Positions 5,428-46,264 of a DNA stretch of 59,633 bases are shown here, one piece after another. Position 1 is the first letter of the stretch. Each line of letters starts with the position of its first letter. The notes below the pieces were generated by a model. It saw only the letters and a list, made by a program, of their open reading frames with translations, did no database searches and had not been told where the DNA came from. The position numbers and the translations under genes were made by a program. The DNA lies in the IMG/VR virus record IMGVR_UViG_3300025324_000002, positions 1-59,633 of that record. One strand, given 5' to 3'. This stretch comes from a virus.

Positions 5428-7326
5428 GTGCCTCTCAACATCGATCCTCGCGAGTTAGTATCTCTCCAGAAGGGCCGTCCCGCCTTCCGCGGTCGCGGTG
5501 CCCGTGAAAAAAATGAGAAGTTGGAATCTCAGGGCTCCGAAGTCGTCGATCAGATAACGAAAATCCGCGACTGCACGCAATCCAACTACAAGACTACGAC
5601 CCTCTGGCGCGATGCCGGCGTAGAGTCCTACAACTTCATTGAAAATAAACAGTGGGACGAAAAAGACCTTGAATACTTAAAAAAGCAAGGCCGTCCCGCG
5701 ATGACCTTCAACAAAATTCTGCCTCAAGTCCGTTTACTCAGCGGCATGGAGCGCCAGAACCGGGAAGAACTCCGCGTATTCCCGCGCGAGGGCTCCGACA
5801 CTCAAGATGCCGACGTAATGACAGGGCTGGTCAAATACTGTCTTGATGAAAACCTTGCTCCTTGGCAGCTTACCCGCAAGTCGAACGATGTTTATATCTG
5901 TGGCCGAGGTTGGATTAAAACCGACATCAGCTACGATGAGAACATCAACGGTGACTGTACCATCCAACGTCTAAACCCATTTCGGATATTTTGGGATACG
6001 ATGTCAGATGATTGGTCCGGGGCTGACATGCGATGGGTACAAGACTCCCCGTGGATGACCGAGGATGAAGCGAAAGAGCTTTGGCCCGAGTTTGCCGACA
6101 TTATAAAAATAGGCGATTGGCTTTCCGGTAGCACTCCGTTTTTAGTGTCCGGAGTACAGACGGGCGATAAAAACTGGGAGGATAAACTTTTTCTCGATGT
6201 CGAGACTAAACGGGTCCGGTGCCTCGAACATTGGTACAAGATTCGCCAACCTATCCTTTTGGCCGTGAATGCGTCTACCGGCGATATTAGGAACGCCGAG
6301 GATGAAAGTTTCGTAAAAGAATTGGAGGGGTTGAGCGGCCAACAGAGGGGTGCTTTTCGGTTCGTTCGCCAGAACAAGACCATTATTCGCGTTGCCACCG
6401 TGATGAACTGGATAATCGTCCAGGACAAGCCCAGCCCCTTCAAGCATAACAATTTGCCGATCATTCCTTACATCGGTTTACAGTTTATGGGAGAGCCGAA
6501 CGGGTTAGTAGAGTATCTCAAAGATCCTCAAAGGCTCGGTAATAAGTCCATTTCTCAAACCCTGAATCATCTTAACCGATCGGCGAATAGCGGCTGGTTG
6601 AATAAAAGCGGAACGGGAGCGAATCATCAACAGTTGGAACAATTCGGGTCTGCTGCTGGCGTTGTAATTGAATATGAGGAAGTAATGCCGGACAGGATTG
6701 AACCGGCTAGGTTGGATTCCGGTCACATGACACTAGCTCAGGCCAGTGATGGGCTGATTCGGGAAATCTCCCTTTTGAATTCTGAGCTGTCGGGGCTGGG
6801 CACGCAAAAAACCGTATCAGGCAGAGCAATAGAGGCTAGACAGCGCGGCGGCATGACCGGCAACGAAGACTTTTTCGACAACATGCTTTTGGGCGACAAG
6901 ATCCTCGGTTATCAACTTATCTCTAACATCCAACAGACCTACACCCAGGCGAGAATTATCCGCATCCTCGGCGCGCAGAGCGTGAGAAATTCCGATGAGT
7001 TGGGCGCGAAGATGTACATGGAGCTGAAAAACGATACTGATAAACTCTTTCAAGTCGTGGATCGTTGCTTAAAGGCAGAATATGATTATGTGGTTGATCG
7101 CTCGCCGCAGTCCGTGACGATCCGACTGGCTCAGTTTGAAACATTGTTAAAAGCGGCGAAGGATTTTCCAGGGTCTATCCCCCCGGATGTGATCGTGGAC
7201 ATGTCGGACTATCCCGAGAATGCGAAATCGCGAATCAAGCAACATCTACAGAAAATTCAGCAAATGGAAGACATGGCGAAACAGGTCGGTATGGGTAGCG
7301 GGGTTGCTTTACCGCCGGTTCAATAG
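5428..7326 (+). CDS. portal protein
   Basis: 632 aa; size and position before scaffold and capsid; RLNPFRIFWDTMS...DMRWV segment typical of podovirus portals. Confidence 0.8.
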   Translation: MPLNIDPRELVSLQKGRPAFRGRGAREKNEKLESQGSEVVDQITKIRDCTQSNYKTTTLWRDAGVESYNFIENKQWDEKDLEYLKKQGRPAMTFNKILPQVRLLSGMERQNREELRVFPREGSDTQDADVMTGLVKYCLDENLAPWQLTRKSNDVYICGRGWIKTDISYDENINGDCTIQRLNPFRIFWDTMSDDWSGADMRWVQDSPWMTEDEAKELWPEFADIIKIGDWLSGSTPFLVSGVQTGDKNWEDKLFLDVETKRVRCLEHWYKIRQPILLAVNASTGDIRNAEDESFVKELEGLSGQQRGAFRFVRQNKTIIRVATVMNWIIVQDKPSPFKHNNLPIIPYIGLQFMGEPNGLVEYLKDPQRLGNKSISQTLNHLNRSANSGWLNKSGTGANHQQLEQFGSAAGVVIEYEEVMPDRIEPARLDSGHMTLAQASDGLIREISLLNSELSGLGTQKTVSGRAIEARQRGGMTGNEDFFDNMLLGDKILGYQLISNIQQTYTQARIIRILGAQSVRNSDELGAKMYMELKNDTDKLFQVVDRCLKAEYDYVVDRSPQSVTIRLAQFETLLKAAKDFPGSIPPDVIVDMSDYPENAKSRIKQHLQKIQQMEDMAKQVGMGSGVALPPVQ

Positions 7327-8951: not shown

Positions 8952-9959
8952 ATGCCGACTTCATTATATGCGACGATGGAAGCCACCGATCAGGCATTTT
9001 ATGATCGGAAACTTCTCGAACGTGCCTTGCCGGAATTGGTTCACACCCATTTCGGTCAGGACAGACCACTTAAAGACAAAAGCACAAAATCAATCATCTT
9101 CCGGCGCTGGGAATCGCTGAGTCCGAACACGGTCGCGCTCATTGAAAGTATCACCCCGCTCGGAACTTCCCTGTCAAAGACCGACATCACGGCAACCGTG
9201 GCCCAATATGGCGACTATGTTACCGTATCGGACATTCTCACCTGGACTTCTCGCGATGAGGTTCTGAACGAAGCCGCTGATGTTTTGGGTGAACAGGAAG
9301 GTCAATCCCTCGACCAGGTCTGCCGCGACATCATAGTCGCTGGGACTTCGGTGTTTTGCGCCACGGACGATTCAGGTGCAACCGGTACGACTCGGACCGA
9401 CGTTGATGGACTCATCAACGCAGTGGCGATGAACAAGGTTCTACGGTTTCTGCAGAACGGTAATACCAAGCCATTCACCAAGCTCATCAAGCCGGGAACC
9501 GGAATCGGGACTCAGGGCATTCTGCCTGCGTTCTGGTCAATCGTTGCCCCAAATACGTTCTACTCACTCCGCGCCGTGTCGGGATTCGTATCGGTGAAGG
9601 ATTACCCGGCGCAGCAGGAAGTCATGCCGTCCGAAGTCGGGTCGTATCGCGAGGCTCGGTTTGTGATGACGACTTTCGCAAAGGTGTTCATCGACGCTGG
9701 GGCCAACGTGGCCTCTGGTCATCAGAGCACGGGCACCGTCAAGGAAGATGTCTTCGCTACCCTGTTCATGGGGATGAACGCCTACGGTAAGGTGCCACTG
9801 ACTGCGCACGCAACCGAGATGATCACCAAGCCGCTCGGGAGCGCGGGCACTGCCGACCCTTTGAACCAGCGTTCGACCGTAGGCTGGAAGGCAGCGCAGA
9901 CGTTCAAACTATTGAACAACGCTTTCATCAGCAGGCTTGAACACGGAGTGTTAGCGTAA
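8952..9959 (+). CDS. major capsid protein, N4-gp56 family (HK97 fold)
   Basis: 335 aa; FYDRKLLERALPELVHTHFGQ...IIFRRWESL...VAQYGDYVTVSD...LGEQEGQSLDQVCRDI matches the family pattern as I remember it. Confidence 0.85.
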   Translation: MPTSLYATMEATDQAFYDRKLLERALPELVHTHFGQDRPLKDKSTKSIIFRRWESLSPNTVALIESITPLGTSLSKTDITATVAQYGDYVTVSDILTWTSRDEVLNEAADVLGEQEGQSLDQVCRDIIVAGTSVFCATDDSGATGTTRTDVDGLINAVAMNKVLRFLQNGNTKPFTKLIKPGTGIGTQGILPAFWSIVAPNTFYSLRAVSGFVSVKDYPAQQEVMPSEVGSYREARFVMTTFAKVFIDAGANVASGHQSTGTVKEDVFATLFMGMNAYGKVPLTAHATEMITKPLGSAGTADPLNQRSTVGWKAAQTFKLLNNAFISRLEHGVLA

Positions 9960-16832: not shown

Positions 16833-18047
16833 ATGGGCATGGCTGAAATTCGACTTCCCTTTGGTCTTAATGATGTAGTCAGAGCCGGCAGACGGTTAGG
16901 CGGAATCAGTCCAGAGGATTATGTCAGGTCGCAGGAATTTAGAGATTTGATGACTTCTGGCTTTAAGCAACAAATCGCCGGTGAGGAACCTACCGATTTA
17001 ATGAAGATCGAGGGAGAATTGATGCGTAGGGGGTGGGGGCCTAAGACATCACAAGCTTATGTTAGTGGTGTTACCGATCGTTTAAAAACTGCGCACACCT
17101 ATCGCACTGTTGCCGAAGTCAATAAAGAAAATGCTCCACGGACCCAATTTGCTGAACCCGAAACGTTGCAACTTAATCCTATCCAACAGCCCGCCTCGCC
17201 GATCAACCGCCAAACCTTCGGGCTTGGCGCATCCGGCCTGGAGCAATCTGCTAAAGATCTGGCGCCATCGTTCGGGCCGATAACCGGGAGTACGCCGCGT
17301 CGGAATCTCCGCCAAGACCAGGCAATGAATATCATGCCGGAAGAGGCATGGAAAAATCCGTATCAAGTCGGCTCGTTCATGGAGGTGCCACAGAGACAAG
17401 CGCACCTAGAAGCCCAAAGAGAGAATCAGGCAGCACAGGCGCAACGTAATATCGAACAGGCGGGTAGGGATAAAACACTCAGGCGGTTAGAAGAACTAAA
17501 GGAAGAAACAATCAGGGGGTTGAGTAGCGAGCCGGGGCCAGCAGGCGAGCCTAGCCAACGGGCAATAGCCTTGTCTCCTACGGGACTGGTGCAATATCTA
17601 CCACAGAGAGAAAAGACGGAAGACCCGCTGTTGGAAGAGAGGCGAAAACTTTTAGAATCGCAAACGGCAGAGAGTGGCGCGCGGGCCGGTTATTATCGTG
17701 GGCGCGAAGGCAATAGAGGCAACGCAAGCACATTAACACCAGCAGCTATTGCCACCCGTCTAAACGGAATTGGCCGCGCGCTCCAAGATCCATTGTTGGA
17801 GGATGAGGACAGAGAGGAACTTATTGCCGAAGCAAAGGCACTGCGTCAGGAATTGTTGGGCCGGACTCGGGGTGGCGCCGCCACATCGCAGCCGGGCGGT
17901 CCCAGGCCCGCAATGAATGCGCTTCCCGATCCTAAAAAGAATAAGGGGCGGATTGTCCGTGATACCCAAACAAATGACCGCTTTCAGTCGGACGGAAAAA
18001 GCTGGGTGAAGTTAAGTGCCGGCGCGCCGGCTGGTAGGGAATACTGA
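16833..18047 (+). CDS. putative internal virion protein (Gln/Glu/Arg-rich)
   Basis: 404 aa; its stop overlaps the start of the 1746-aa gene. Confidence 0.5.
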   Translation: MGMAEIRLPFGLNDVVRAGRRLGGISPEDYVRSQEFRDLMTSGFKQQIAGEEPTDLMKIEGELMRRGWGPKTSQAYVSGVTDRLKTAHTYRTVAEVNKENAPRTQFAEPETLQLNPIQQPASPINRQTFGLGASGLEQSAKDLAPSFGPITGSTPRRNLRQDQAMNIMPEEAWKNPYQVGSFMEVPQRQAHLEAQRENQAAQAQRNIEQAGRDKTLRRLEELKEETIRGLSSEPGPAGEPSQRAIALSPTGLVQYLPQREKTEDPLLEERRKLLESQTAESGARAGYYRGREGNRGNASTLTPAAIATRLNGIGRALQDPLLEDEDREELIAEAKALRQELLGRTRGGAATSQPGGPRPAMNALPDPKKNKGRIVRDTQTNDRFQSDGKSWVKLSAGAPAGREY

Positions 18048-21000
18048 TGGCGTTTGTTTTCGAAGATGAATTACCGAGTCAAGCTCAATCCCGCTACGTC
18101 TTCGAGCCCGAAGAACCCAAGCGAGGTGTCCTCGATCGCCTTGCCACGTCCGTAAAATCCGATCTTTCCCGAGCAGGCCGAAATATCAGCCGCGCAGTCC
18201 CGGCGGTCATCGAGGGTGGCCGTAATCTTGCAGTGACGTCTATATCTGCGCCTCCCATTGAAGATCAAATAGGGCAGGCCGACTTTTCGCCAATAGTTAG
18301 GGGAATAAAAGCAATCCCTGGGGCAGCTCTGGATATCGTCAAGCATGGCGTAGCAGCACTCCGTAAGGCGCCGCAATTTTTAAGCGAGGTGCCGGCGGAT
18401 GAGCCGAGACTCTCTAACGCGACACGTATAGCGCGCCGGCTTTATGAAACGCCAGGAGAGCTATTACGCGGCTTTGGGGAAACGGCTAGCGCGGGGCTTA
18501 CACGGGAGTTTGGCATTACTCCGCCACCCAAGACCGAAGGCGCTGAAGCGTTACGTACTCTAGGCGGGTTTGCATCGTTTCCGGCTATTCTGAAACGTAT
18601 TCCCGGTGGCGCACCGGGAAAAGTAGCTGCTGGTGCAGCTATGGGCGCCGCTGTGCCCGTTGTAAGGGGAGAAGGAGAACAGGCCCTAGAGGGAGCAGTC
18701 ACCGGCGCGGGCTTAATGGCAGGCTTCGAGTTGGCCGGTGCCGCATTCCGGCGTTACAAGGGTCGCAATCCTGTTAGTCGTGCAGAGGTTGTTCAGACGA
18801 TGCGAGAGGAGCCGGCTTTTATTGAAGTTCTCAAAGAGGAACGCGCACGGCGGACCACCGGAGAAGAGCCCGCCTTTATTGAAACGCTCAAGGAGGATTT
18901 ACAGGCAACGGCAGAGAAATCCCCAGAGAAACCGCGATTTGTGTTTGAGGAACCGAAGGTTGAGTCCCAAGTCGCAGTGAAGTCCGTTGAGCAACAGCAA
19001 GCGCAAGCGGCATCCCAAAAGGCTCGCCCTAAAATGGACGACTCCGAAGTCGCCGTCTCCACCTTCATTGCTCGTCAAGGCGGCCTAACTATCCCGAAAG
19101 AATTGAAGGAGGAATTCGGCGGCTGGAGTAGGCTGAACAAAAAGGGCGGGCTTGCTCCCGATGAAATGGCCGTTGAGGCTCATAACGCTGGCCTTATACC
19201 GGAGCCCACAACCAACGCACTCCTAGAAGGATTAAAAAGCGGCAAGAAATCATCGCGTATAAGCGAGGGCGGACTTGTCAGGCAAGAAGTGGAAGCGGCG
19301 GCTGAGAGCAAGATCAGAGATCTTACGGAGACACCATCGGATCTTGAATATAAAGGCAAGACGTATCACAACGCAACTCGTGAAGGTAATAACGTTAGAT
19401 TGCGGGATGATACCGATGTTGTGCTCAAGAAGGCTGAGCAGATATTGAGCGTTGAGGAAAAGGTCGCTCCTGTAATTCAGCAAACCGAAGCGGGCGCGCA
19501 AACCATCATTCCCGGCGCCGAGACCCGCACGGTTCCAAGCGGGCCGCTCAGGCCGAGACGGGCACAGACAGAGACGCCAATGGATCTTGAGCAGTTCGGA
19601 ATACGCGCGAAGGAGCCGGGACTCTTCGGCCAACAAAAGAAGCCGGTTCCCGTTCCCCGCGAACGGCTCTCCCCAGACGAGATAGCCGCGCAGGATGAAA
19701 TGAGAGGGATGCTCGGCGGTCGTCGCTCAGCAAAGCCCCCCGACGAAGCGCCGTTTGATATTCCGCCCGCAGGCGCCGAGATGGAACCGGGCTCCTACGG
19801 CTTCCCTGAATTTCGCAAAACCCCGAAAGACGTTCCGCAGTCGGTCACACCCATGGAGCGCAACTACCAACCGCCGACACGGAAAGGGCCGCTGCCGATT
19901 GTTCGCCGTGGCGATATTATCCGCGACATGCAGGATGCTTTCCAAGTCCCGATTCGAACCGGACATGGAAACTTCGCGCAGATGAAAGCGGCGGGCTTTT
20001 TCAAGGTCAAAGAGGAAGTCATCCGGTTAAAGCAGGCCAACGACATGGAAGCGGTCGCCCACGAGGTTGGGCACTTCATCTCGAAAAAGATTTTGAACTA
20101 TGAGTACAGCAAGGGGAAGGGTAGACGCCAGCCATTCCACGGCGAGCTCGAACAGATGGGTAAAGACCTATACGGCAGTCGCAAGCCTCATGGTGGATAT
20201 GCCGAGGAGGGCATTGCCGAGTTTATCCGATACTACGTCGTCGATCCAGCCAAGGCGCAGACAAAGGCGCCAAAGTTTTTCAAGTTCTTTGAGGAAGCAA
20301 TTGGACCGAAGCACCCCGATGTCATAGACACCCTGCACGCGGCGCGCGATAACTGGCGCCGCTACCAAGAGCAGCCCGCCGTTGCCCGCGTGCTTTCTCA
20401 AATATCGATTGGTGAGAAGGATACCAGACCAATCACGCTCGACGGACTTTATAAGCATGCCATCGACGATATTTACCCGATCAAGGTATTTACCGAGCGA
20501 ATGAGCCAGGGTAAGGCGCCGCTCGATGCTTCGGATAACCCCTACGTGTTAGCGCGCCTGTTTCGCGGCTGGATCGGGAAAGCCGACCTGTTTTTAAAAG
20601 ACGGTCCAATTGATTTCGACACATTACGGCCAGTCGGGGGCGCAACCTCGCTTAACAAGATTCTGGCACCGTTCTCCAAAAACCTAGACGATCTTCGGGC
20701 GTATCTGGTGGCTCGCCGGGCGGCAGAGCTCATGACCCGCGGGAAAGAGACAGGACTTGCGGCAAAAGATGTCCAGGCGACCCTTGAAGCCTACAATGGT
20801 CGGCCGGAATTTGTGAAGGCTGCCGAGATGCTTCAGTCCTACAATAATGCGCTTCTCGATTACCTCCAAAAATCGGGTGTCCTTAGCGCCGAATCGGTGG
20901 CGCGAATCAAGGAGTTGAATCAGGACTATGTTCCTTTTTATCGGTTGATCGAGGGTGAACGCACCGGCGGTGGTGCGGCTGGGACACAACGGTTTGCCAA

Positions 21001-23287
21001 TCTCGGAAGCCCCATAAAGAGACTTAAGGGGTCGGCCAGAGAAATCATTGATCCGCTGGAGTCGATAGTCAAAAACACCTACGCCATGATCAATGTCGCA
21101 GAGCGTAATCAGGTTGGCCGCGCTCTGGTGCGCCTTGCCGAGAACGGCGAGGGCATGGGTAAGTTCATTGAAAAGGTTCCTCGGGACAAAATTCCTGTCA
21201 CGCTAAAGGACATCGAACTACAGAACGTGCTCCGGCGCTACGGCAGGATCAAAGAGACCGAATCCTTTCAGACTTCCAAACAGGAACTCACGCGCGAGAT
21301 CGGCGCCAGTGGTGAAACCCCAGCGAGCGGCGGGCGCGCGCAGCAGCTCGTCGAAGCTAAGGTTATGGAAGCTCTTAGAGCGCGCGGGTTCGCAGATGGC
21401 GAGTCGAAGCAATATATCGCCAGGCTAAAGAGCGCCAAATCAGAGGCCGCCGTTAATAGCATCATTGAAAAGATCGTTACTGAGAAAACTATTCGGACAG
21501 TCACCAAAGAACTCGAACTCGATCTTCCACCTGAATTGGTTGCGGCCTTTCGCCCCGACCCCAAGGTTCCCGGCATGGACAACATCCTGTCGGTAAGAAC
21601 AAATGGAAAGCCCGAGCTTTACCAAGCCCATCCCGACCTCTATAACGCAATGCTCAATCTGGATCAGGGTTCGCAGAACATTCTCATCAAACTCTTGAGC
21701 CTGCCGGCAAGAGCATTGCGCCTAGGGGCAACCACGCTATCGCCGGAATTTGCAGTGAGAAATCCGCTTCGCGATCAATGGACCGCCGCGATGTATTCAA
21801 AATATGGCGGAATCAATATACCCGGAGGCGATCTTATCCGCGGGCTTTTCCACGTCATTAAGCGCGACGCTCTTTATCAAGCCTGGAAGGCTGGCGGCGG
21901 CGTTGGTTCTAGCCTTGTGTCCCTTGACCGGCGAAACCTTCAAAAGACGCTCAATGATGTAATTAGAAGTGGTCAGGCCAAAGGGATCGCTTCGACCATC
22001 GTCCGCCATCCCATTGAGTCACTTCGTATGTTTTCCGAGCTGGGCGAGTCAGTGACCCGCGTGGGAGAATTTGCAAAGGTCATTCAGAAGGAGGGCGGGT
22101 TTTCAAAGGAAAATATCCTACGCGCCGGCTTTGAATCACGCGAGATCACGCTTGACTTTGCGCGCATGGGCTCGGCAATGAAGGTGAGCGGCGCCAATCA
22201 GATTGTTGCCTTTTTAAACGCCAACATTCAGGCGCAAGATAAGATGATCCGCGCTTTTAGGGAACGACCCGCGCTCATGACGGCGCGCGGTGTTGCGACC
22301 ATTACTGTTCCGTCGCTGCTTCTGTATATGGCGAATAAAGACGATCCGCGCTACCAGGAGCTTCCCCGCTGGCAGAAAGACCTGTTCTGGATCATCCCGA
22401 GCGGCACCATGACGACTGCGACATGGGGAAAGATGACCCCAGAGGAAAAAACCAGCTTCAACCGCGAGCACACGATCTGGCGAATTCCCAAGCCTTTCGA
22501 ACTTGGAGTTTTGTTCGGCACGCTTCCCGAGCGTGTTTGGGATTGGATAGAGAAAAATGACCCGCAAGCCATGGCCGATTTTGCCAAGAGCGCCTTTGGC
22601 TCGTTCCCCAATCCCATCCCAACAGCTACAGTTCCTCTCATTGAAAACATGGCGAACTGGTCGATATTCCGCGAACGACCGATAGTTTCGCGCGGTAAGG
22701 AATTTGTAACGCCGTCTGAACAGTACGGACCATATACCTCTGAGACGGCCAAGAAAGCCGGAAAACTCCTTGATTACTCACCTGCCAAGATTGAAAATCT
22801 AATTCAAGGGTACACGGGAGGCACGGGCCGTAGCGTCCTTTCGATGACAGACTTACTGGCGGGATTCGGAAAAAAATCTGAGCCGCCCGAAAAGACGCTC
22901 GCGGACGTGCCAGTGCTACGGGCTTTCGTGGCGCGCTCACCCGCTGCGTCATCTCAATCGATCGAAAGGTTTTTTAAAAGGCTCCAGGAAGCCGAGACAA
23001 TCCGCAACACTTTTCTCTCCTTGAAGAAAGAGCGACGTATTGACGAACTGAGGGGCTACGCTACGGAGCATAAGGAAGACTTGAAGGAATATCCAAAACT
23101 TCGCGCCGTGGCTAATCTACTCGCTAAAGTAAGAAAAAAGGCTGGTGCCGTTAGAGAAAACGACGATATCACACCGGCTGAGAAGAGAGACAATCTGGAT
23201 GCCTTGAACTTCCGCATGATAGACATTGCGCGCAGGGGCTTAAACAGGGAAAATCAGCAGGTGCTTCAAGACCTCGGACTGCAATAA
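18047..23287 (+). CDS. giant virion/ejection protein with gluzincin-type metallopeptidase motif (polyvalent-protein-like)
   Basis: Uninterrupted 1746-aa ORF; HEVGH at 20060..20074 plus EEGIAE at 20204..20221; internal EEPAFIE(V/T)LKE duplication. Confidence 0.8.
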   Translation: MAFVFEDELPSQAQSRYVFEPEEPKRGVLDRLATSVKSDLSRAGRNISRAVPAVIEGGRNLAVTSISAPPIEDQIGQADFSPIVRGIKAIPGAALDIVKHGVAALRKAPQFLSEVPADEPRLSNATRIARRLYETPGELLRGFGETASAGLTREFGITPPPKTEGAEALRTLGGFASFPAILKRIPGGAPGKVAAGAAMGAAVPVVRGEGEQALEGAVTGAGLMAGFELAGAAFRRYKGRNPVSRAEVVQTMREEPAFIEVLKEERARRTTGEEPAFIETLKEDLQATAEKSPEKPRFVFEEPKVESQVAVKSVEQQQAQAASQKARPKMDDSEVAVSTFIARQGGLTIPKELKEEFGGWSRLNKKGGLAPDEMAVEAHNAGLIPEPTTNALLEGLKSGKKSSRISEGGLVRQEVEAAAESKIRDLTETPSDLEYKGKTYHNATREGNNVRLRDDTDVVLKKAEQILSVEEKVAPVIQQTEAGAQTIIPGAETRTVPSGPLRPRRAQTETPMDLEQFGIRAKEPGLFGQQKKPVPVPRERLSPDEIAAQDEMRGMLGGRRSAKPPDEAPFDIPPAGAEMEPGSYGFPEFRKTPKDVPQSVTPMERNYQPPTRKGPLPIVRRGDIIRDMQDAFQVPIRTGHGNFAQMKAAGFFKVKEEVIRLKQANDMEAVAHEVGHFISKKILNYEYSKGKGRRQPFHGELEQMGKDLYGSRKPHGGYAEEGIAEFIRYYVVDPAKAQTKAPKFFKFFEEAIGPKHPDVIDTLHAARDNWRRYQEQPAVARVLSQISIGEKDTRPITLDGLYKHAIDDIYPIKVFTERMSQGKAPLDASDNPYVLARLFRGWIGKADLFLKDGPIDFDTLRPVGGATSLNKILAPFSKNLDDLRAYLVARRAAELMTRGKETGLAAKDVQATLEAYNGRPEFVKAAEMLQSYNNALLDYLQKSGVLSAESVARIKELNQDYVPFYRLIEGERTGGGAAGTQRFANLGSPIKRLKGSAREIIDPLESIVKNTYAMINVAERNQVGRALVRLAENGEGMGKFIEKVPRDKIPVTLKDIELQNVLRRYGRIKETESFQTSKQELTREIGASGETPASGGRAQQLVEAKVMEALRARGFADGESKQYIARLKSAKSEAAVNSIIEKIVTEKTIRTVTKELELDLPPELVAAFRPDPKVPGMDNILSVRTNGKPELYQAHPDLYNAMLNLDQGSQNILIKLLSLPARALRLGATTLSPEFAVRNPLRDQWTAAMYSKYGGINIPGGDLIRGLFHVIKRDALYQAWKAGGGVGSSLVSLDRRNLQKTLNDVIRSGQAKGIASTIVRHPIESLRMFSELGESVTRVGEFAKVIQKEGGFSKENILRAGFESREITLDFARMGSAMKVSGANQIVAFLNANIQAQDKMIRAFRERPALMTARGVATITVPSLLLYMANKDDPRYQELPRWQKDLFWIIPSGTMTTATWGKMTPEEKTSFNREHTIWRIPKPFELGVLFGTLPERVWDWIEKNDPQAMADFAKSAFGSFPNPIPTATVPLIENMANWSIFRERPIVSRGKEFVTPSEQYGPYTSETAKKAGKLLDYSPAKIENLIQGYTGGTGRSVLSMTDLLAGFGKKSEPPEKTLADVPVLRAFVARSPAASSQSIERFFKRLQEAETIRNTFLSLKKERRIDELRGYATEHKEDLKEYPKLRAVANLLAKVRKKAGAVRENDDITPAEKRDNLDALNFRMIDIARRGLNRENQQVLQDLGLQ

Positions 23288-40982: not shown

Positions 40983-42020
40983 ATGGAAGCAGAGGAAAAA
41001 ATCACAGTCGAGGCGCTGTGCGCCGAAATCATGGAGAAGCGCGCCGAACGTTACGCCAGGAAGACGGCGCCCTATGCTAAATCGCAACCCACGTCTTCCG
41101 ACCTTGGAGACTGTCTACGCGAAACTGTTCTCGGTATTACGAACTGGCGAGATAAGCCGAATTTCTCAGTCGAGTTGGTGCAACGGTTTAATCGTGGAGG
41201 CAAGATTGAAGACTTGGCAATCGCCGAGCTTCAGGAGTTAGGCTACCGCGTGCGTGTAGATCGCCGTCCGTTCGAGATGAAAGACAAAAAGGGGCGCGTG
41301 GTGCTTCGCGGCATCATTGACGGGTTTGTTGAGGTCGGGCACCGGCAAATATTTCCGATGGAGTGCAAGAGTCTCAACCCCAACATTTGGGGAAGGATAG
41401 ACAGCCAAGAGGACTTTGATAATTACGCTTTTTTCCGAAAATACCCTCGACAACTCCAGTCGTATCTGCTTGCCGAAAATCTGTATCACGGCTTTTGGTT
41501 GCTTGATGACTGCCTCGGGCATTGGAAGCTGATTCCTTGCCACCTTGACCTTCACCGCGCCGAGAAACTTCTGAGCCACGCCGAGCAGGCCGTTGAACAT
41601 ATCGCCAACGGCACCTTGCCGCCATTCCACTACGATCCTTCTTACTGCCTCAAGTGCTGGGCTTTCAAAAGAGTCTGCACGCCTGATTTTTTCACCGGCG
41701 AAGGCATGAAGCAGGTCAACGACCCGGAATTTGAGGAAAAGCTCGCGCGTCGGGCTGCGCTAGACTTAGCGGCGACTGAATATGACCATCTTGACAAGGA
41801 AATAAAGGAAACGCTCAAGGCCGCTATGAAGCCGATGGATAATTGGATCATTGGTGATTGGCTTGTCTCGGCAACTGAAAAGGAGCGCCGGATGAAGGCG
41901 CAGCCGGCGAAAGAAGCGCACACAAGCAAATACATGGCCTTCGATGTTTCTCGAATCGACGAGGAAGAGGCGATCAAGAAGTCAGACGCCGACTACGAGG
42001 CGCTTGCCGGGAAGGCCTAG
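40983..42020 (+). CDS. PD-(D/E)xK exonuclease, Cas4/RecB-like with a 4-Cys cluster
   Basis: GIIDGFVE...PMECKS (D...ExK); Cys in LGDCLRE plus CLKCWAFKRVC. Confidence 0.7.
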   Translation: MEAEEKITVEALCAEIMEKRAERYARKTAPYAKSQPTSSDLGDCLRETVLGITNWRDKPNFSVELVQRFNRGGKIEDLAIAELQELGYRVRVDRRPFEMKDKKGRVVLRGIIDGFVEVGHRQIFPMECKSLNPNIWGRIDSQEDFDNYAFFRKYPRQLQSYLLAENLYHGFWLLDDCLGHWKLIPCHLDLHRAEKLLSHAEQAVEHIANGTLPPFHYDPSYCLKCWAFKRVCTPDFFTGEGMKQVNDPEFEEKLARRAALDLAATEYDHLDKEIKETLKAAMKPMDNWIIGDWLVSATEKERRMKAQPAKEAHTSKYMAFDVSRIDEEEAIKKSDADYEALAGKA

Positions 42021-42852: not shown

Positions 42853-43728
42853 ATGTCGTATCTTCATATTGCGAATCTTTATCGGCCTGAAGCCCAACGG
42901 ATTCTTGAATTTAAGCAAGTATTCGTCATGGAAAAAATACACGGCACCTCGGCGCATGTGGCTTGGAAGGATAATGCTCTACGGTTTTTCTCCGGTGGAT
43001 CGAAGCATGAAACGTTCGTTGCTCTGTTCGCGGAGGAACAACTGCAGGCCGCATTTAGCGAGATGGCAAATCCCGATGTGACTGTCTACGGCGAAGCCTA
43101 TGGCGGCAAAATTCAGGGAATGAGCAAAGTTTATGGACCCAAGATTAGATTCGTAGCCTTCGAAGTCAAGATAGGCGGTTCTTGGCTTTCTGTCCCACAG
43201 GCTTGCGATATTGCCGTGAATAGGCTCGGTTTGGACTTTGTTTGCTACGATCTGAGCGCAACCGATATTGAATCGCTGAACGAGCACCGAGATGCAAACT
43301 CGGCTCAGGCCATGAAAAACGGCATGGGCGAGCATCCACGCGAAGGTATAGTAATCCGTCCGCCATTTGAGGTCATCCTAAACAACGGCGAAAGACTAAT
43401 TGCTAAATACAAAACCGAAGCATTTCAAGAACGGACACGCGAGCCCAAGATAGGCGAAGATTTGAAAACTCTCACCGATGCCGAGGCGGCAGCGGATGAG
43501 TGGGTCACAAATAACCGGATGGAGCATGTACTAGATTCGTTGTGTTCCGAATCTGTGGATGTTCAGGATATTACCGCCACGGGTGCAGTGATTAAGCGAA
43601 TGTATCAAGACATAGAGCGTGAGGGCGCGGGAGAACTTGAGTTTTCAAAAATGCTTTCGCGGGCTATCGGACAAAAAACGGCCAAAATGTTTAAGCAGAG
43701 ATTGCAGACGCGGATTAATGAGGGGTAG
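42853..43728 (+). CDS. RNA ligase (Rnl2 / PF09414-like nucleotidyltransferase)
   Basis: Motif I EKIHGTS (Lys at 42934..42936), GEAYGGKIQG, FVAFEV, REGIVIRP, AKYK. Confidence 0.7.
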   Translation: MSYLHIANLYRPEAQRILEFKQVFVMEKIHGTSAHVAWKDNALRFFSGGSKHETFVALFAEEQLQAAFSEMANPDVTVYGEAYGGKIQGMSKVYGPKIRFVAFEVKIGGSWLSVPQACDIAVNRLGLDFVCYDLSATDIESLNEHRDANSAQAMKNGMGEHPREGIVIRPPFEVILNNGERLIAKYKTEAFQERTREPKIGEDLKTLTDAEAAADEWVTNNRMEHVLDSLCSESVDVQDITATGAVIKRMYQDIEREGAGELEFSKMLSRAIGQKTAKMFKQRLQTRINEG

Positions 43729-43731
43729 GGG

Positions 43732-44946
43732 ATGACGCCATCTAACGCCTGGATGGGCTGCTACGAGATGGGCTGGCAAGGGCTAATTGTGCCAGAGGCA
43801 TTCGCTCATCCTGCCAAGGTCTCCCGCGGACTGATCCGCCGCATCTACAAGCACGCCTTTGACGAGGGCTGGCTGAAACACGGCGATTCGGTGGTTGATC
43901 CATTCGGCGGCATCGCCGGCACAGCCTTAGACGCCATGTGGAACCGCTGTCACTGGATAGGTGTGGAGTTGGAACCCCGCTTTGTGGCGCTAGCCGAGCA
44001 GAACATCGCTCTTTGGCAACGCAAGTTCGGGAGCAATGCGGGCTGGGGCCGAGGGATAATCATTCAGGGGGACTCCCGGCAGTTGGTGAGCGTGATAGCG
44101 GGCGCGGATTTGATTTGTTCTTCGCCGCCGTTCCATGACTCGATGAGCAACAAACCAAGTGCGCAGATTCTAGCTGGTAGCGGCGGGCGCATGGGTGAAA
44201 GTTGCAAATCTAACGATATCTACGGCACCACCGAAGGCCAGCTAGGCCGCATGAAAGAAGGCACCCCGCCGAGCGTGGAGATGATTGTCGGGAGCCCGCC
44301 GTTTACCGACAGCATGAACACGCAAGACGTTAAATTTTGGCACAAACACATAACCGATATCGGGCGTGATCCCGATACACCAGGGGCGAGAAGTTTGATT
44401 GGCGATTACGGCTCCACTCCCGGCCAGCTCGGCGCCATGCCCGAGGGCAAGTTTGACGCGGTGATTAGCTCGCCGCCGTTCGAGCAAAGCAATCTCACGG
44501 TTGACAAAAATTTTATGGCCCAGGTTGAGCGAGACAAACGTAATGGGTCCCGTCTGCAGCCAGGACTCGGCACGTACGGAAAAGAGGCTGGCAACATCGG
44601 CAACCAATCCGGCTCCACTTTCTGGACCGCCGCCCGCGAGATTGTCGCCCAATGCCACGCGATATTGCGACCGGGCGGTCACTCGATTTGGGTTTGTAAG
44701 GATTTCGTTAGAAAGGGCCAGCGCGTGCCCTTCAGCGACCAATGGCAGGCGCTATGTGAGGCGGAGGGCTTTCGGCTGGTCTGCCGCCATCGCGCAATGC
44801 TCGTGGCGCATCACGGGGAGCATGGTCAGTTATTCGGTGGGAGCGAACAACTCAAAACCGAGCGAAAGAGTTTTTTTCGCAGGCTTGCCGAGAAAAAAGG
44901 TAGCCCTGCGATAGACTGGGAAGACGTGCTCTGCTTGGAGCGATGA
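43732..44946 (+). CDS. DNA N4-C/N6-A methyltransferase with triplicated SPPF motif IV
   Basis: AHPAK...VVDPFGGIAGT (motifs X and I), then SPPF at 44122, 44293 and 44470; LRPGG after the third. Confidence 0.8.
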   Translation: MTPSNAWMGCYEMGWQGLIVPEAFAHPAKVSRGLIRRIYKHAFDEGWLKHGDSVVDPFGGIAGTALDAMWNRCHWIGVELEPRFVALAEQNIALWQRKFGSNAGWGRGIIIQGDSRQLVSVIAGADLICSSPPFHDSMSNKPSAQILAGSGGRMGESCKSNDIYGTTEGQLGRMKEGTPPSVEMIVGSPPFTDSMNTQDVKFWHKHITDIGRDPDTPGARSLIGDYGSTPGQLGAMPEGKFDAVISSPPFEQSNLTVDKNFMAQVERDKRNGSRLQPGLGTYGKEAGNIGNQSGSTFWTAAREIVAQCHAILRPGGHSIWVCKDFVRKGQRVPFSDQWQALCEAEGFRLVCRHRAMLVAHHGEHGQLFGGSEQLKTERKSFFRRLAEKKGSPAIDWEDVLCLER

Positions 44947-45410: not shown

Positions 45411-45746
45411 ATGCAGCAATCCAAGCCGGGCATAAAGCTGAATCCGCTAATAGCCTCCAAGACAACGCCGATATTTGAGGCGGACCCGAAGCGATACCAG
45501 CGAATTTGCCGCTGGGTTTGGACGCAGCAAAAACGGGGCTGGCCGGACGAAGCGATAGCGGAGGCGCTCAGTCTGGCCGGCACGAACATTCACAGGGCCG
45601 ATAGCTGGTGGAAATATCTGACGGCATTGTTACCGAAAGGGAAAGGGCGCGCGGCGGAAATTGAATCAACTCGCCATAAATCGGAAGTGGGAGAGATCGC
45701 GGGCGAGTTTGTTGAGTTTCTAAAGCAAAAGAGAGGGGCAAAATGA
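45411..45746 (+). CDS. hypothetical protein
   Basis: 111 aa; ATGA overlap with the initiator gene. Confidence 0.45.
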   Translation: MQQSKPGIKLNPLIASKTTPIFEADPKRYQRICRWVWTQQKRGWPDEAIAEALSLAGTNIHRADSWWKYLTALLPKGKGRAAEIESTRHKSEVGEIAGEFVEFLKQKRGAK

Positions 45747-46264
45747 AAGAACGGATTAACCCATATAACATGTTCGTCGGCTCATTTATTCCGAACTGGC
45801 TATTAGAGCAGCCTGAACTAAGCTCGAACGCGAAACTTGTCTATGGCCGGCTTTGCCAGTTTGCCGGGAAAGATGGGCGGGCATTCCCGACTATCGAGAC
45901 TCTTAGCGTGAAGACGGGCCTTTCTAAGAGTACAGCCGAAAGAGCCCTGGCTGAACTTAAAGACGCCAAGCTTATTGACGTTGAAAGACACGGGTTGAAT
46001 CAGCCTAATAGCTATTTTTTTTTACGCCATAAGTGGATGGATGGGAAACCGGATACGTCACCGGTGACGTATCAAGATACTTCAACGTTGACGGATCAGG
46101 ATACGTCACCGGTGACGTACATAAGAGAATCAGAAGAAGAGAATCAGTTAAGAGATCCCGCAAGGCGGGCGCCTTCGGCGGGTTCTTTAAAGAAATCAGG
46201 ATCGGGAATGACACCGGAAGCGGCCAAGGCGCACCTTAAACAACTGCGCGAAGGACTGAATTGA
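45743..46264 (+). CDS. replication initiator, winged-HTH (lambda O / DnaD-like)
   Basis: LSSNAKLVYGRLCQFAGKDGRAFPTIETLSVKTGLSKSTAERALAELKDAKLI; carries internal iterons. Confidence 0.65.
   Translation: MKERINPYNMFVGSFIPNWLLEQPELSSNAKLVYGRLCQFAGKDGRAFPTIETLSVKTGLSKSTAERALAELKDAKLIDVERHGLNQPNSYFFLRHKWMDGKPDTSPVTYQDTSTLTDQDTSPVTYIRESEEENQLRDPARRAPSAGSLKKSGSGMTPEAAKAHLKQLREGLN
46051..46119. repeat. putative origin iterons inside the initiator gene
   Basis: GGATACGTCACCGGTGACGTA at 46051..46071 and 46099..46119; GATAC+TTCAACGTTGA between them; GATAC phased every 24 bp. Confidence 0.55.

Follow-up and report, generated by a model that had tools for sequence, protein, structure and literature searches.

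Variable arrays of motif IV cassettes in a predicted family of phage amino-methyltransferases

Multispecific C5 methyltransferases are known from temperate Bacillus phages, namely M.SPRI, M.Phi3TI, M.Rho11sI and M.H2I of phages SPR, phi3T, rho11s and H2, on which Trautner, Noyer-Weidner, Walter and colleagues worked. These enzymes combine one S-adenosylmethionine (SAM)-binding and catalytic core with tandem target-recognising domains, each of which is thought to serve one target. The catalytic PC motif is single, and the recognition domains alone are repeated. Modules can be gained, lost and reordered, and their presumed role is protection against several restriction systems. A different form of repetition is found in RsmC, which has two tandem methyltransferase (MTase) domains, and in Dmt of phage P1, a fused double MTase; in both the whole Rossmann-like domain is duplicated, motif I included. 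Here we analyse a predicted orphan phage amino-MTase of 404 amino acids (aa) encoded in IMG/VR record IMGVR_UViG_3300025324_000002, a stretch of 59,633 nucleotides (nt) that was analysed as a whole and is called the window below. In this protein a single motif I is followed by three copies of motif IV, each in a cassette of its own (Table 1).

The reading we favour, at a probability of roughly 0.45, is that of an orphan phage DNA amino-MTase with exchangeable catalytic-plus-recognition cassettes, multispecific through alternative capture of the fourth core strand, beta4. The data show the architecture, the variation in copy number across the family, the conservation, shuffling and non-redundancy of the cassettes, the co-variation of strands with the core, and the phage context; we infer the DNA substrate, the loop-determined specificity and multispecificity, and the alternative capture of strands. 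An earlier note on this DNA had offered decoys, altered specificity and more than one active configuration as explanations of the repeated motif. Altered specificity or several active configurations fit the evidence from the family best, because (i) every copy is conserved; (ii) cassettes are shuffled; (iii) loop types are not duplicated; and (iv) the strands co-vary with the core. The decoys are not borne out.

The cassette array and its conservation

The translated open reading frame (ORF) contains three S-P-P-aromatic tetrapeptides in 404 aa, for which a chance expectation of ~0.005 is estimated from residue frequencies. All three read SPPF, and the earlier note was right in describing motif IV as present three times in tandem modules; SPPF stands at aa 131, 188 and 247. 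The strings it quoted around the motif, ICSSPPFHDSM..YGTTEGQLGRMKEG, IVGSPPFTDSM..YGSTPGQLGAMPEG and VISSPPFEQS..YGKEAGNIGNQS..LRPGG, were all found, as were AHPAK and VVDPFGGIAGT upstream. Each module follows one plan, in which a hydrophobic strand leads into SPPF, a variable loop of 29-34 aa and the element YGxxxGQ/N(L/I)G, over a length of 56-59 aa. The loops of the three window modules are mutually dissimilar, and the modules are ~31% identical to one another (pairwise BLASTP, E=2e-7 for modules 1 and 2 and E=2e-5 for modules 2 and 3). At the DNA level, repeats are limited to motif codons, with a 12-nt exact match between two SPPF sites and a 43-nt match at 72% identity between two YG..GQLG sites. 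The ~31% identity of the modules, together with the near absence of DNA-level repeats, therefore indicates an old duplication and not an assembly artefact; recent tandem duplication was likewise ruled out by this analysis.

The exact 12-nt direct repeat, TCGCCGCCGTTC, encodes SPPF and lies at 44122-44133 and 44470-44481, in frame and 348 nt apart. Recombination between its copies would remove cassettes cleanly and is a plausible route to changes in copy number.

The array varies in length, and the triplication is only one of its states. Among 177 full-length members of the family the number of modules per protein runs from one to eight (one module in 9 proteins, two in 26, three in 68, four in 46, five in 18, six in 4, seven in 4 and eight in 1). 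Single-module members, such as P0201 (295 aa), represent the enzyme in its simplest form, the lone module being contiguous with both core halves. The earlier note had foreseen that triplication might prove common in homologues and have a structural role; homologues do carry one to eight copies, but no structural role is known for them. Internal modules, of which ~330 were recovered from 120 proteins with a junction hidden Markov model (HMM), lack SPP[FYW] in only ~5 cases, and with ~98% intact they are unlikely to be decoys. In 35 aligned three-module homologues the S-P-P of all three motifs is invariant, and the strand pattern [A/F]-D-[A/L]-V-V-S is common to first, middle and last modules. 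By these measures each copy is under selection.

Loop types were assigned on the variable loops only; single-linkage clustering of whole modules lumps all of them together via the common YG..GQLG tail. The 592 loops fall into about 260-320 types. Among the 45 types represented by at least three loops, 42 are found in two or more positions of the array. The loop type of window cassette 1 takes the first position in P0002, P0007 and P0008 and the third in P0049, the window cassette being 83% identical to cassette 1 of P0002 and 62% identical to cassette 3 of P0049. Window cassette 2 shares 51% identity with cassette 2 of P0039, the N-terminal cores of the two proteins only 45%, and window cassette 3 is 64% identical to cassette 3 of P0041. 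Set against P0009 and P0010, the window protein has cassettes that are just 28-38% identical and cores that are 62-83% identical. Judged by these sequence comparisons, the cassettes behave as exchangeable functional units that are shuffled between proteins. A 59-aa single-cassette query of a large protein index gave no match.

Repetition of a loop type within one protein is rare. The same type occurs twice in 1 of the 120 proteins, as against 8.9 ± 2.5 expected under shuffling (P=0.0004), and in the set of 177 proteins the counts observed at three clustering thresholds were 3, 1 and 0, where 8.7, 7.9 and 5.1 were expected. Redundant cassettes seem to bring no benefit, which would be expected if each cassette provided a different activity.

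The strands of the cassettes are further related to the core. The strand residue at position -3 from SPPx (I128, I185 and V244 in the window) co-varies in all module classes with three core positions, these being positions 11 (C308) and 14 (I311) of helix alphaD and position 2 of strand beta5 (I319). Where alphaD 11 is Cys, small residues stand at -3 in 0/98 first cassettes, 0/137 middle ones and 2/98 last ones; where it is Thr or Val, the corresponding figures are 22/53, 73/99 and 28/53. The association of -3 with alphaD 11 persists inside single loop types. It also recurs when a neighbour-joining tree is built from other core regions, on which there are at least 22 changes between Cys and non-Cys. 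Position 12 of alphaD (His versus Tyr/Phe) was considered as the driver of the co-variation and rejected; position 11 (Cys versus non-Cys) is the one that drives it. Taken at face value, the co-variation would mean that all strands are fitted to one common site in the core.

Methyltransferase identity and predicted fold

The assignment of the protein to the amino-MTases, already proposed in the earlier note, has held up, with a PF01555 match above threshold, matches to many models of type II MTases and a predicted fold of the class I type. PF01555 (N6_N4_Mtase) scores 38.9 bits against a gathering threshold of 26.7, in two stretches, and is the sole family match above a curated threshold; weak Pfam matches are to MTS and UPF0020. 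Nineteen PADLOC MTase models match, of which 16 are for type II MTases and 2 for orphan MTases, the other being mad2, and the type II models cover aa 25-97 with their C-terminal parts. The motif I characteristic of exocyclic-amino MTases is present as DPFGGIAGT (aa 56-64), with D56, F58 and G60 invariant in the 35 homologues, and this segment lines up with motif I of PF01555 and of the type II MTase models. Motif IV of amino-MTases is (D/N/S)-P-P-(Y/F/W) at the C-terminal end of beta4 (PMC7544214), and the three SPPF copies have this form, the first being modelled right after strand 125-130. The C5-MTase family, with its PC and ENV motifs, is not among the matches; the motifs present are of the amino-MTase type. 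SPP[F/Y] is the variant of motif IV typical of N4-cytosine enzymes. No model in NCBIfam, PHROGs or Pfam spans the whole protein.

When the last cassette and alphaD are used as a profile, the rotifer N4-cytosine MTase 8s9m aligns with it (whole-sequence E=0.005), as does TTHA0409 (2zie), though below significance (E=1.5). Both 8s9m and 2zie have the segment SPPY..Y.DTPGQLG..alphaD..PGG once, with a short loop. The repeated module would therefore be the ordinary segment of strand, motif IV and active-site loop, with the loop greatly lengthened. A phmmer search of PDB sequences with the C-terminal 169 aa gave no match.

The order of motifs sets the protein apart from class beta, for which the order IV-TRD-I is described, TRD being the target-recognition domain (PMC7544214). 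Here motif I (aa 56-64) lies upstream of every copy of motif IV (131, 188 and 247), and the two PF01555 stretches occur in reverse of the profile order, aa 24-89 being matched by profile positions 160-220 of 221, its C-terminal part with motifs X/I, and the second stretch being motif IV. As far as its motifs indicate, the protein is related to class beta and circularly permuted, with the order X-I-II-III-IV-(V-VIII). An arrangement of motif I, motif IV and a variable C-terminal TRD agrees in that I stands before IV, but the C-terminal tail (KSFFRRLAEKKGSP) ranks with the best-conserved regions of the family, in which the cassette loops alone are variable. Class alpha amino-MTases have the order motif I, TRD, motif IV (PMC7544214). 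This would need the last SPPF to be catalytic and cassettes 1 and 2 to act as TRD, whereas AlphaFold2 docks the first copy instead.

AlphaFold2 was run on the window protein with alignment A1, of 35 three-module homologues, and on P0111, a two-module homologue with short loops, with alignment A3. The window model has two confident halves, aa 1-136 (beta1-beta4) and aa 296-404 (alphaD, LRPGG-beta5, beta6/7 and the tail), which mostly have a predicted local distance difference test score (pLDDT) >90. Strands of the N-terminal half are predicted at 53-56, 74-79 and 108-112. The core halves show the strand and helix order expected of the seven-stranded class I MTase fold, and Foldseek returned only generic class I MTases. 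Strand 125-130 is modelled as beta4, and SPPF-1 stands at its C-terminal end, which is the canonical position of motif IV; aa 137-293, cassette 2 included, have pLDDT <50. The P0111 model agrees, with strand 122-127 docked and residues 133-225 of low confidence. The third SPPF had been taken in the earlier note as the canonical one, preceded by two extra modules. This view is not supported, as AlphaFold2 docks the first copy in two family members and no feature singles out the third copy as canonical.

Table 1 Features of the methyltransferase ORF and of other genes in the window
Feature	Position (nt)	Strand	Residues (aa)	Description
Methyltransferase ORF	43732..44946	+	404	complete, 404 aa plus stop; predicted orphan phage amino-methyltransferase with three motif IV cassettes
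N-terminal core half	43732..44103	+	1-124	predicted beta1-beta3; pLDDT >90
HPAK element	43807-43818	+	26-29	in N-terminal core half
Motif I, VVDPFGGIAGT	43891-43923	+	54-64	in N-terminal core half
Motif II acidic residue			79	E79 within GVELE; in N-terminal core half
QGDSR	44065-44079	+	112-116	in N-terminal core half
Cassette 1	44104..44271	+	125-180	strand ADLICS; SPPF aa 131-134 (nt 44122-44133); 29-aa loop of type T12; YGTTEGQLG aa 164-172 (nt 44221-44247)
Cassette 2	44272..44448	+	181-239	strand VEMIVG; SPPF aa 188-191 (nt 44293-44304); 34-aa loop; YGSTPGQLG aa 226-234 (nt 44407-44433)
Cassette 3	44449..44616	+	240-295	strand FDAVIS; SPPF aa 247-250 (nt 44470-44481), with E aa 247-251 (nt 44470-44484); 31-aa loop; YGKEAGNIG aa 282-290 (nt 44575-44601)
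C-terminal core half	44617..44943	+	296-404	alphaD 297-311 (with C308); LRPGG and beta5 312-322; beta6/beta7; conserved tail KSFFRRLAEKKGSP..DWEDV
Portal	5428-7326
Major head protein	8952-9959
1,746-aa ORF	18047-23287	+	1,746	in structural region
Cas4-like/RecE-like exonuclease	40983-42020	+
Rnl2-like RNA ligase	42853-43728	+		3' end 4 nt before methyltransferase start
DnaD/O-like replication initiator	45743-46264	+

Proposed mechanism and alternative explanations

The class I MTase sheet has the strand order 3-2-1-4-5-7-6, in which beta5 is the neighbour of beta4 on one side. On the other side lies beta1; the topological switch-point falls between these neighbouring strands, beta1 and beta4, and motifs I and IV are placed at their C-terminal ends (PMC7544214). 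In the present family the N-terminal half stops just before beta4 and the C-terminal half starts with alphaD, the cassette array therefore being the linker between the halves; in the window protein, cassette 3 continues directly into this helix.

We propose that any single cassette strand could fill the central beta4 slot, between beta1 of the N-terminal half and beta5 of the C-terminal half. Unused cassettes would loop out, those upstream below the sheet and those downstream above it. The captured cassette would bring its own loop beside the active site, and the result would be a multispecific enzyme. Each cassette would thereby constitute a self-contained catalytic-plus-recognition unit, whose target would be set by the variable loop. 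The product of the enzyme would be N4-methylcytosine or N6-methyladenine, and one polypeptide would methylate several sequences, so that the phage genome would be protected against several restriction systems. That one polypeptide folds into n alternative enzymes, with the segment of beta4, motif IV and loop chosen from n cassettes as the half-domains meet, is, taken by itself, an unlikely though by no means negligible proposition. If it were true, a single phage gene would give rise to a population of isoenzymes with different DNA specificities, and new specificities would evolve by the mere insertion or exchange of a cassette of ~57 aa.

Several observations weigh against a multispecific enzyme with interchangeable cassettes. 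In both AlphaFold2 models the first cassette alone is docked at beta4, and later cassettes are in neither of them at the SAM site. Last cassettes also stand apart from the others, for SPPx is followed by Glu in 75% of them but by Ala in first and middle modules. Within loop type 1 this residue is Glu in 9/9 last modules and Ala in 10/12 non-last ones, and the window follows the same rule, with SPPF-H, SPPF-T and SPPF-E (E251, nt 44482-44484); the positions in the array are therefore not fully equivalent. A basic composition, as might suit DNA binding, was not found in the loops, which have a mean net charge of ~0 and are rich in Gly, Ser, Asn and Thr, and no loop type could be linked to a known recognition sequence. 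The statistics of duplicate avoidance and of co-variation are only partly corrected for phylogeny, and the co-variation could also be explained by recombination of loops only, with the strands evolving together with the host gene.

The docking of the first strand in both models and the position-specific Glu of the last cassette, by which array position matters, would fit the main alternative, a protein with one active site, formed by the first cassette. The later cassettes would then be an accessory insert between motif IV and alphaD, and the enzyme would have one specificity, perhaps long or degenerate. Such an insert might recognise or clamp the DNA as one composite element, perhaps with extra unstacked bases lodged in non-catalytic SPPF pockets. 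In related single-module enzymes the alignment and the fold put the stretch that follows motif IV beside the active site, and the insert occupies the position of the DNA-contacting active-site loop of class beta. We nevertheless hold this arrangement to be somewhat unlikely, for it leaves unexplained the ~98% retention of the S-P-P-aromatic tetrapeptide, the beta4-like strand pattern of every copy and the co-variation of middle and last strands with the very core residue that the first strand tracks. Loop types that are independent of position and not duplicated would also suit independent units better than one composite reader. The co-variation of strands and core is equally compatible with docking in trans, as in a strand-swapped oligomer where spare beta4-SPPF cassettes enter the beta4 slot of neighbours to form dimers or chains with different cassettes active in each subunit. 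The spare hydrophobic strands, if unpaired, would otherwise be exposed, and class beta amino-MTases have been proposed to need dimerisation (PMC7544214). Single-module members exist, however, and are presumably functional without spare strands, and an oligomer of this kind seems very unlikely.

The substrate itself may be questioned, since the top Foldseek matches in the PDB are RNA MTases (Trm11, Trm14, RlmCD, TGS1, RsmD-like enzymes and the archaeal m4(2)C synthase 8vyd). The enzyme might modify an exocyclic amine in RNA (m2G, m6A or m4C, in transfer or ribosomal RNA) or a protein glutamine or lysine, with cassettes that suit it to more than one such substrate, perhaps in concert with the RNA ligase encoded immediately upstream. 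The weak Pfam matches to MTS and UPF0020 are in keeping with this, as is the Rnl2-like RNA ligase gene 4 nt upstream; protein glutamine MTases are found among the (D/N/S)PPY enzymes (PMC7544214), and each cassette has a G-Q/N motif. These structural matches, however, have low template modelling (TM) scores and reflect the generic Rossmann-like core alone, and the RNA ligase is not conserved, no neighbour family occurring in more than 10 of 76 viral loci. The one match above a curated threshold is to a DNA methylase family, PF01555, 16 of the 19 matching PADLOC MTase models are for type II MTases, and the profile aligns best with a DNA N4-cytosine MTase. We regard a non-DNA substrate as quite improbable. 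It is hardly credible that the extra copies are functionless, degenerating duplicates or decoys, or that they arose in assembly. Low AlphaFold2 confidence in the cassette region, and nothing else, speaks for this, whereas all copies are conserved across hundreds of proteins. Copies that are ~31% identical with almost no DNA-level repeat exclude an assembly error, and the identical 404-aa protein is present on two contigs.

An orphan DNA amino-MTase with exchangeable cassettes, the reading we prefer, would have several consequences. If each cassette has its own specificity, the array would be a compact and previously unrecognised means by which a phage could counter several restriction-modification systems with one small gene, and, if true, this would be the first multispecific design among amino-MTases. 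The protein also poses a structural puzzle, as there are several candidates for one position in a Rossmann-like sheet. Alternative strand capture could be at work here as a natural case, and as a mechanism it would be new in kind. The loop types, which number in the hundreds, may form a library that pairs short peptide loops with DNA motifs, of use in the engineering of specificity and in the interpretation of metagenomic methylomes.

Phage context and relation to described systems

The window is a tailed-phage genome, with genes for the portal and the major head protein. The start of the MTase ORF agrees with alignment, in which its N-terminus lines up with the N-termini of homologues. The RNA ligase gene that precedes it matches PHROG 548 (E=5e-30) and, weakly, TIGR02307. 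A conserved partner gene, the RNA ligase included, was sought and rejected, as the best neighbour family is present in only 10/76 viral loci. With no conserved neighbour in the 76 viral loci, a cognate nuclease is therefore not indicated. The protein thus shares one property with the multispecific phage MTases of the Trautner type, being phage-encoded and without a cognate restriction enzyme. The MTase region is flanked by the genes for the exonuclease and the replication initiator (Table 1), which therefore place the MTase gene in the early replication and recombination module of a tailed phage.

Further observations concern the rest of the window. The 1,746-aa ORF contains, at aa 1433-1624, an LPD38 domain ('large polyvalent protein-associated') and, at aa 1229-1448, a weak match to a PHROG family annotated as DNA methyltransferase; its product may be a virion-delivered polyvalent protein. 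Between 54001 and 58000 the AT skew is strongly negative (-0.22 to -0.28) and the GC skew falls to about 0, which suggests a leftward-transcribed block at the right genome end.

The family to which the protein belongs is large, uncharacterised and derived from uncultured phages, and the activity, substrate and methylated base of its members are predicted from sequence. The full-length window protein, used as query, retrieved 2,234 homologues. An exhaustive search with the C-terminal half gave 1,376 representative clusters (50% identity) at E<=1e-3 and 1,123 at E<=1e-10. The sources of all members are environmental, comprising metagenomes, viral contigs and metagenome-assembled genomes (MAGs). 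At least 95 IMG/VR viral contigs, 10-140 kb in length, carry homologues, as do MAG contigs assigned to Planctomycetota, Nitrospirota, Desulfobacterota, Chloroflexota and others, and the metagenome contigs that bear them carry phage replication, recombination and terminase genes. In tblastn against 50,697 GenBank phage records the protein had no match at 1e-5, and a cut-off relaxed to E<=1 added nothing beyond marginal, partial matches to generic MTases. Full-text searches of the literature found no description of a repeated or duplicated motif IV or of multispecific amino-MTases.

Individual members show other features. P0008, P0013, P0029 and P0082 are proteins of 650-700 aa. P0082 and P0029 have eight SPP[FY] motifs each. 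In P0029 two motifs also lie ahead of the core on the N-terminal side, and the N-terminus of P0013 is extended by ~250 aa. Large insertions elsewhere are present in some homologues (among P0137, P0200, P0166, P0183 and P0213), either as a Cys-rich stretch (CPxC) that separates motif II from the GDS motif or as low-complexity inserts of several hundred residues. P0172 is without the first strand and SPPx, and its remaining motif reads SPPH.

Comparison with described MTases brings out what is shared and what is not. With the PF01555 class beta enzymes (TTHA0409 2zie/2zig, rotifer N4CMT 8s9m, M.PvuII and CcrM) the protein shares HPxxK and DPFxGxG, [S/D]PP[Y/F] after a hydrophobic strand, Y..TPGQLG, helix alphaD and LxPGG. 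It differs from them in having motif I before motif IV, in the lack of a separate TRD, in a loop after motif IV of 25-45 aa as against about 5-10 aa, and in the repetition of the segment of strand, motif IV and loop. Like RsmC and P1 Dmt it has more than one motif IV in a polypeptide; unlike them it has motif I just once, with beta1-3 and beta5-7 in one set, the repetition being confined to beta4, motif IV and the loop.

The Bacillus-phage C5 MTases share with the present family the plan of a phage-encoded orphan with one core and a tandem array of distinct variable modules, here 1-8 cassettes. The motifs of the present family, in contrast, are those of amino-MTases, with exocyclic-amine chemistry, and the repeated unit includes a central beta-strand and motif IV, up to 8 times. 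No sequence relationship connects the two groups, and the multispecificity of the present family is putative. By analogy, the family would be closest in function to the multispecific C5 MTases of Bacillus phages, without being a member of that group.

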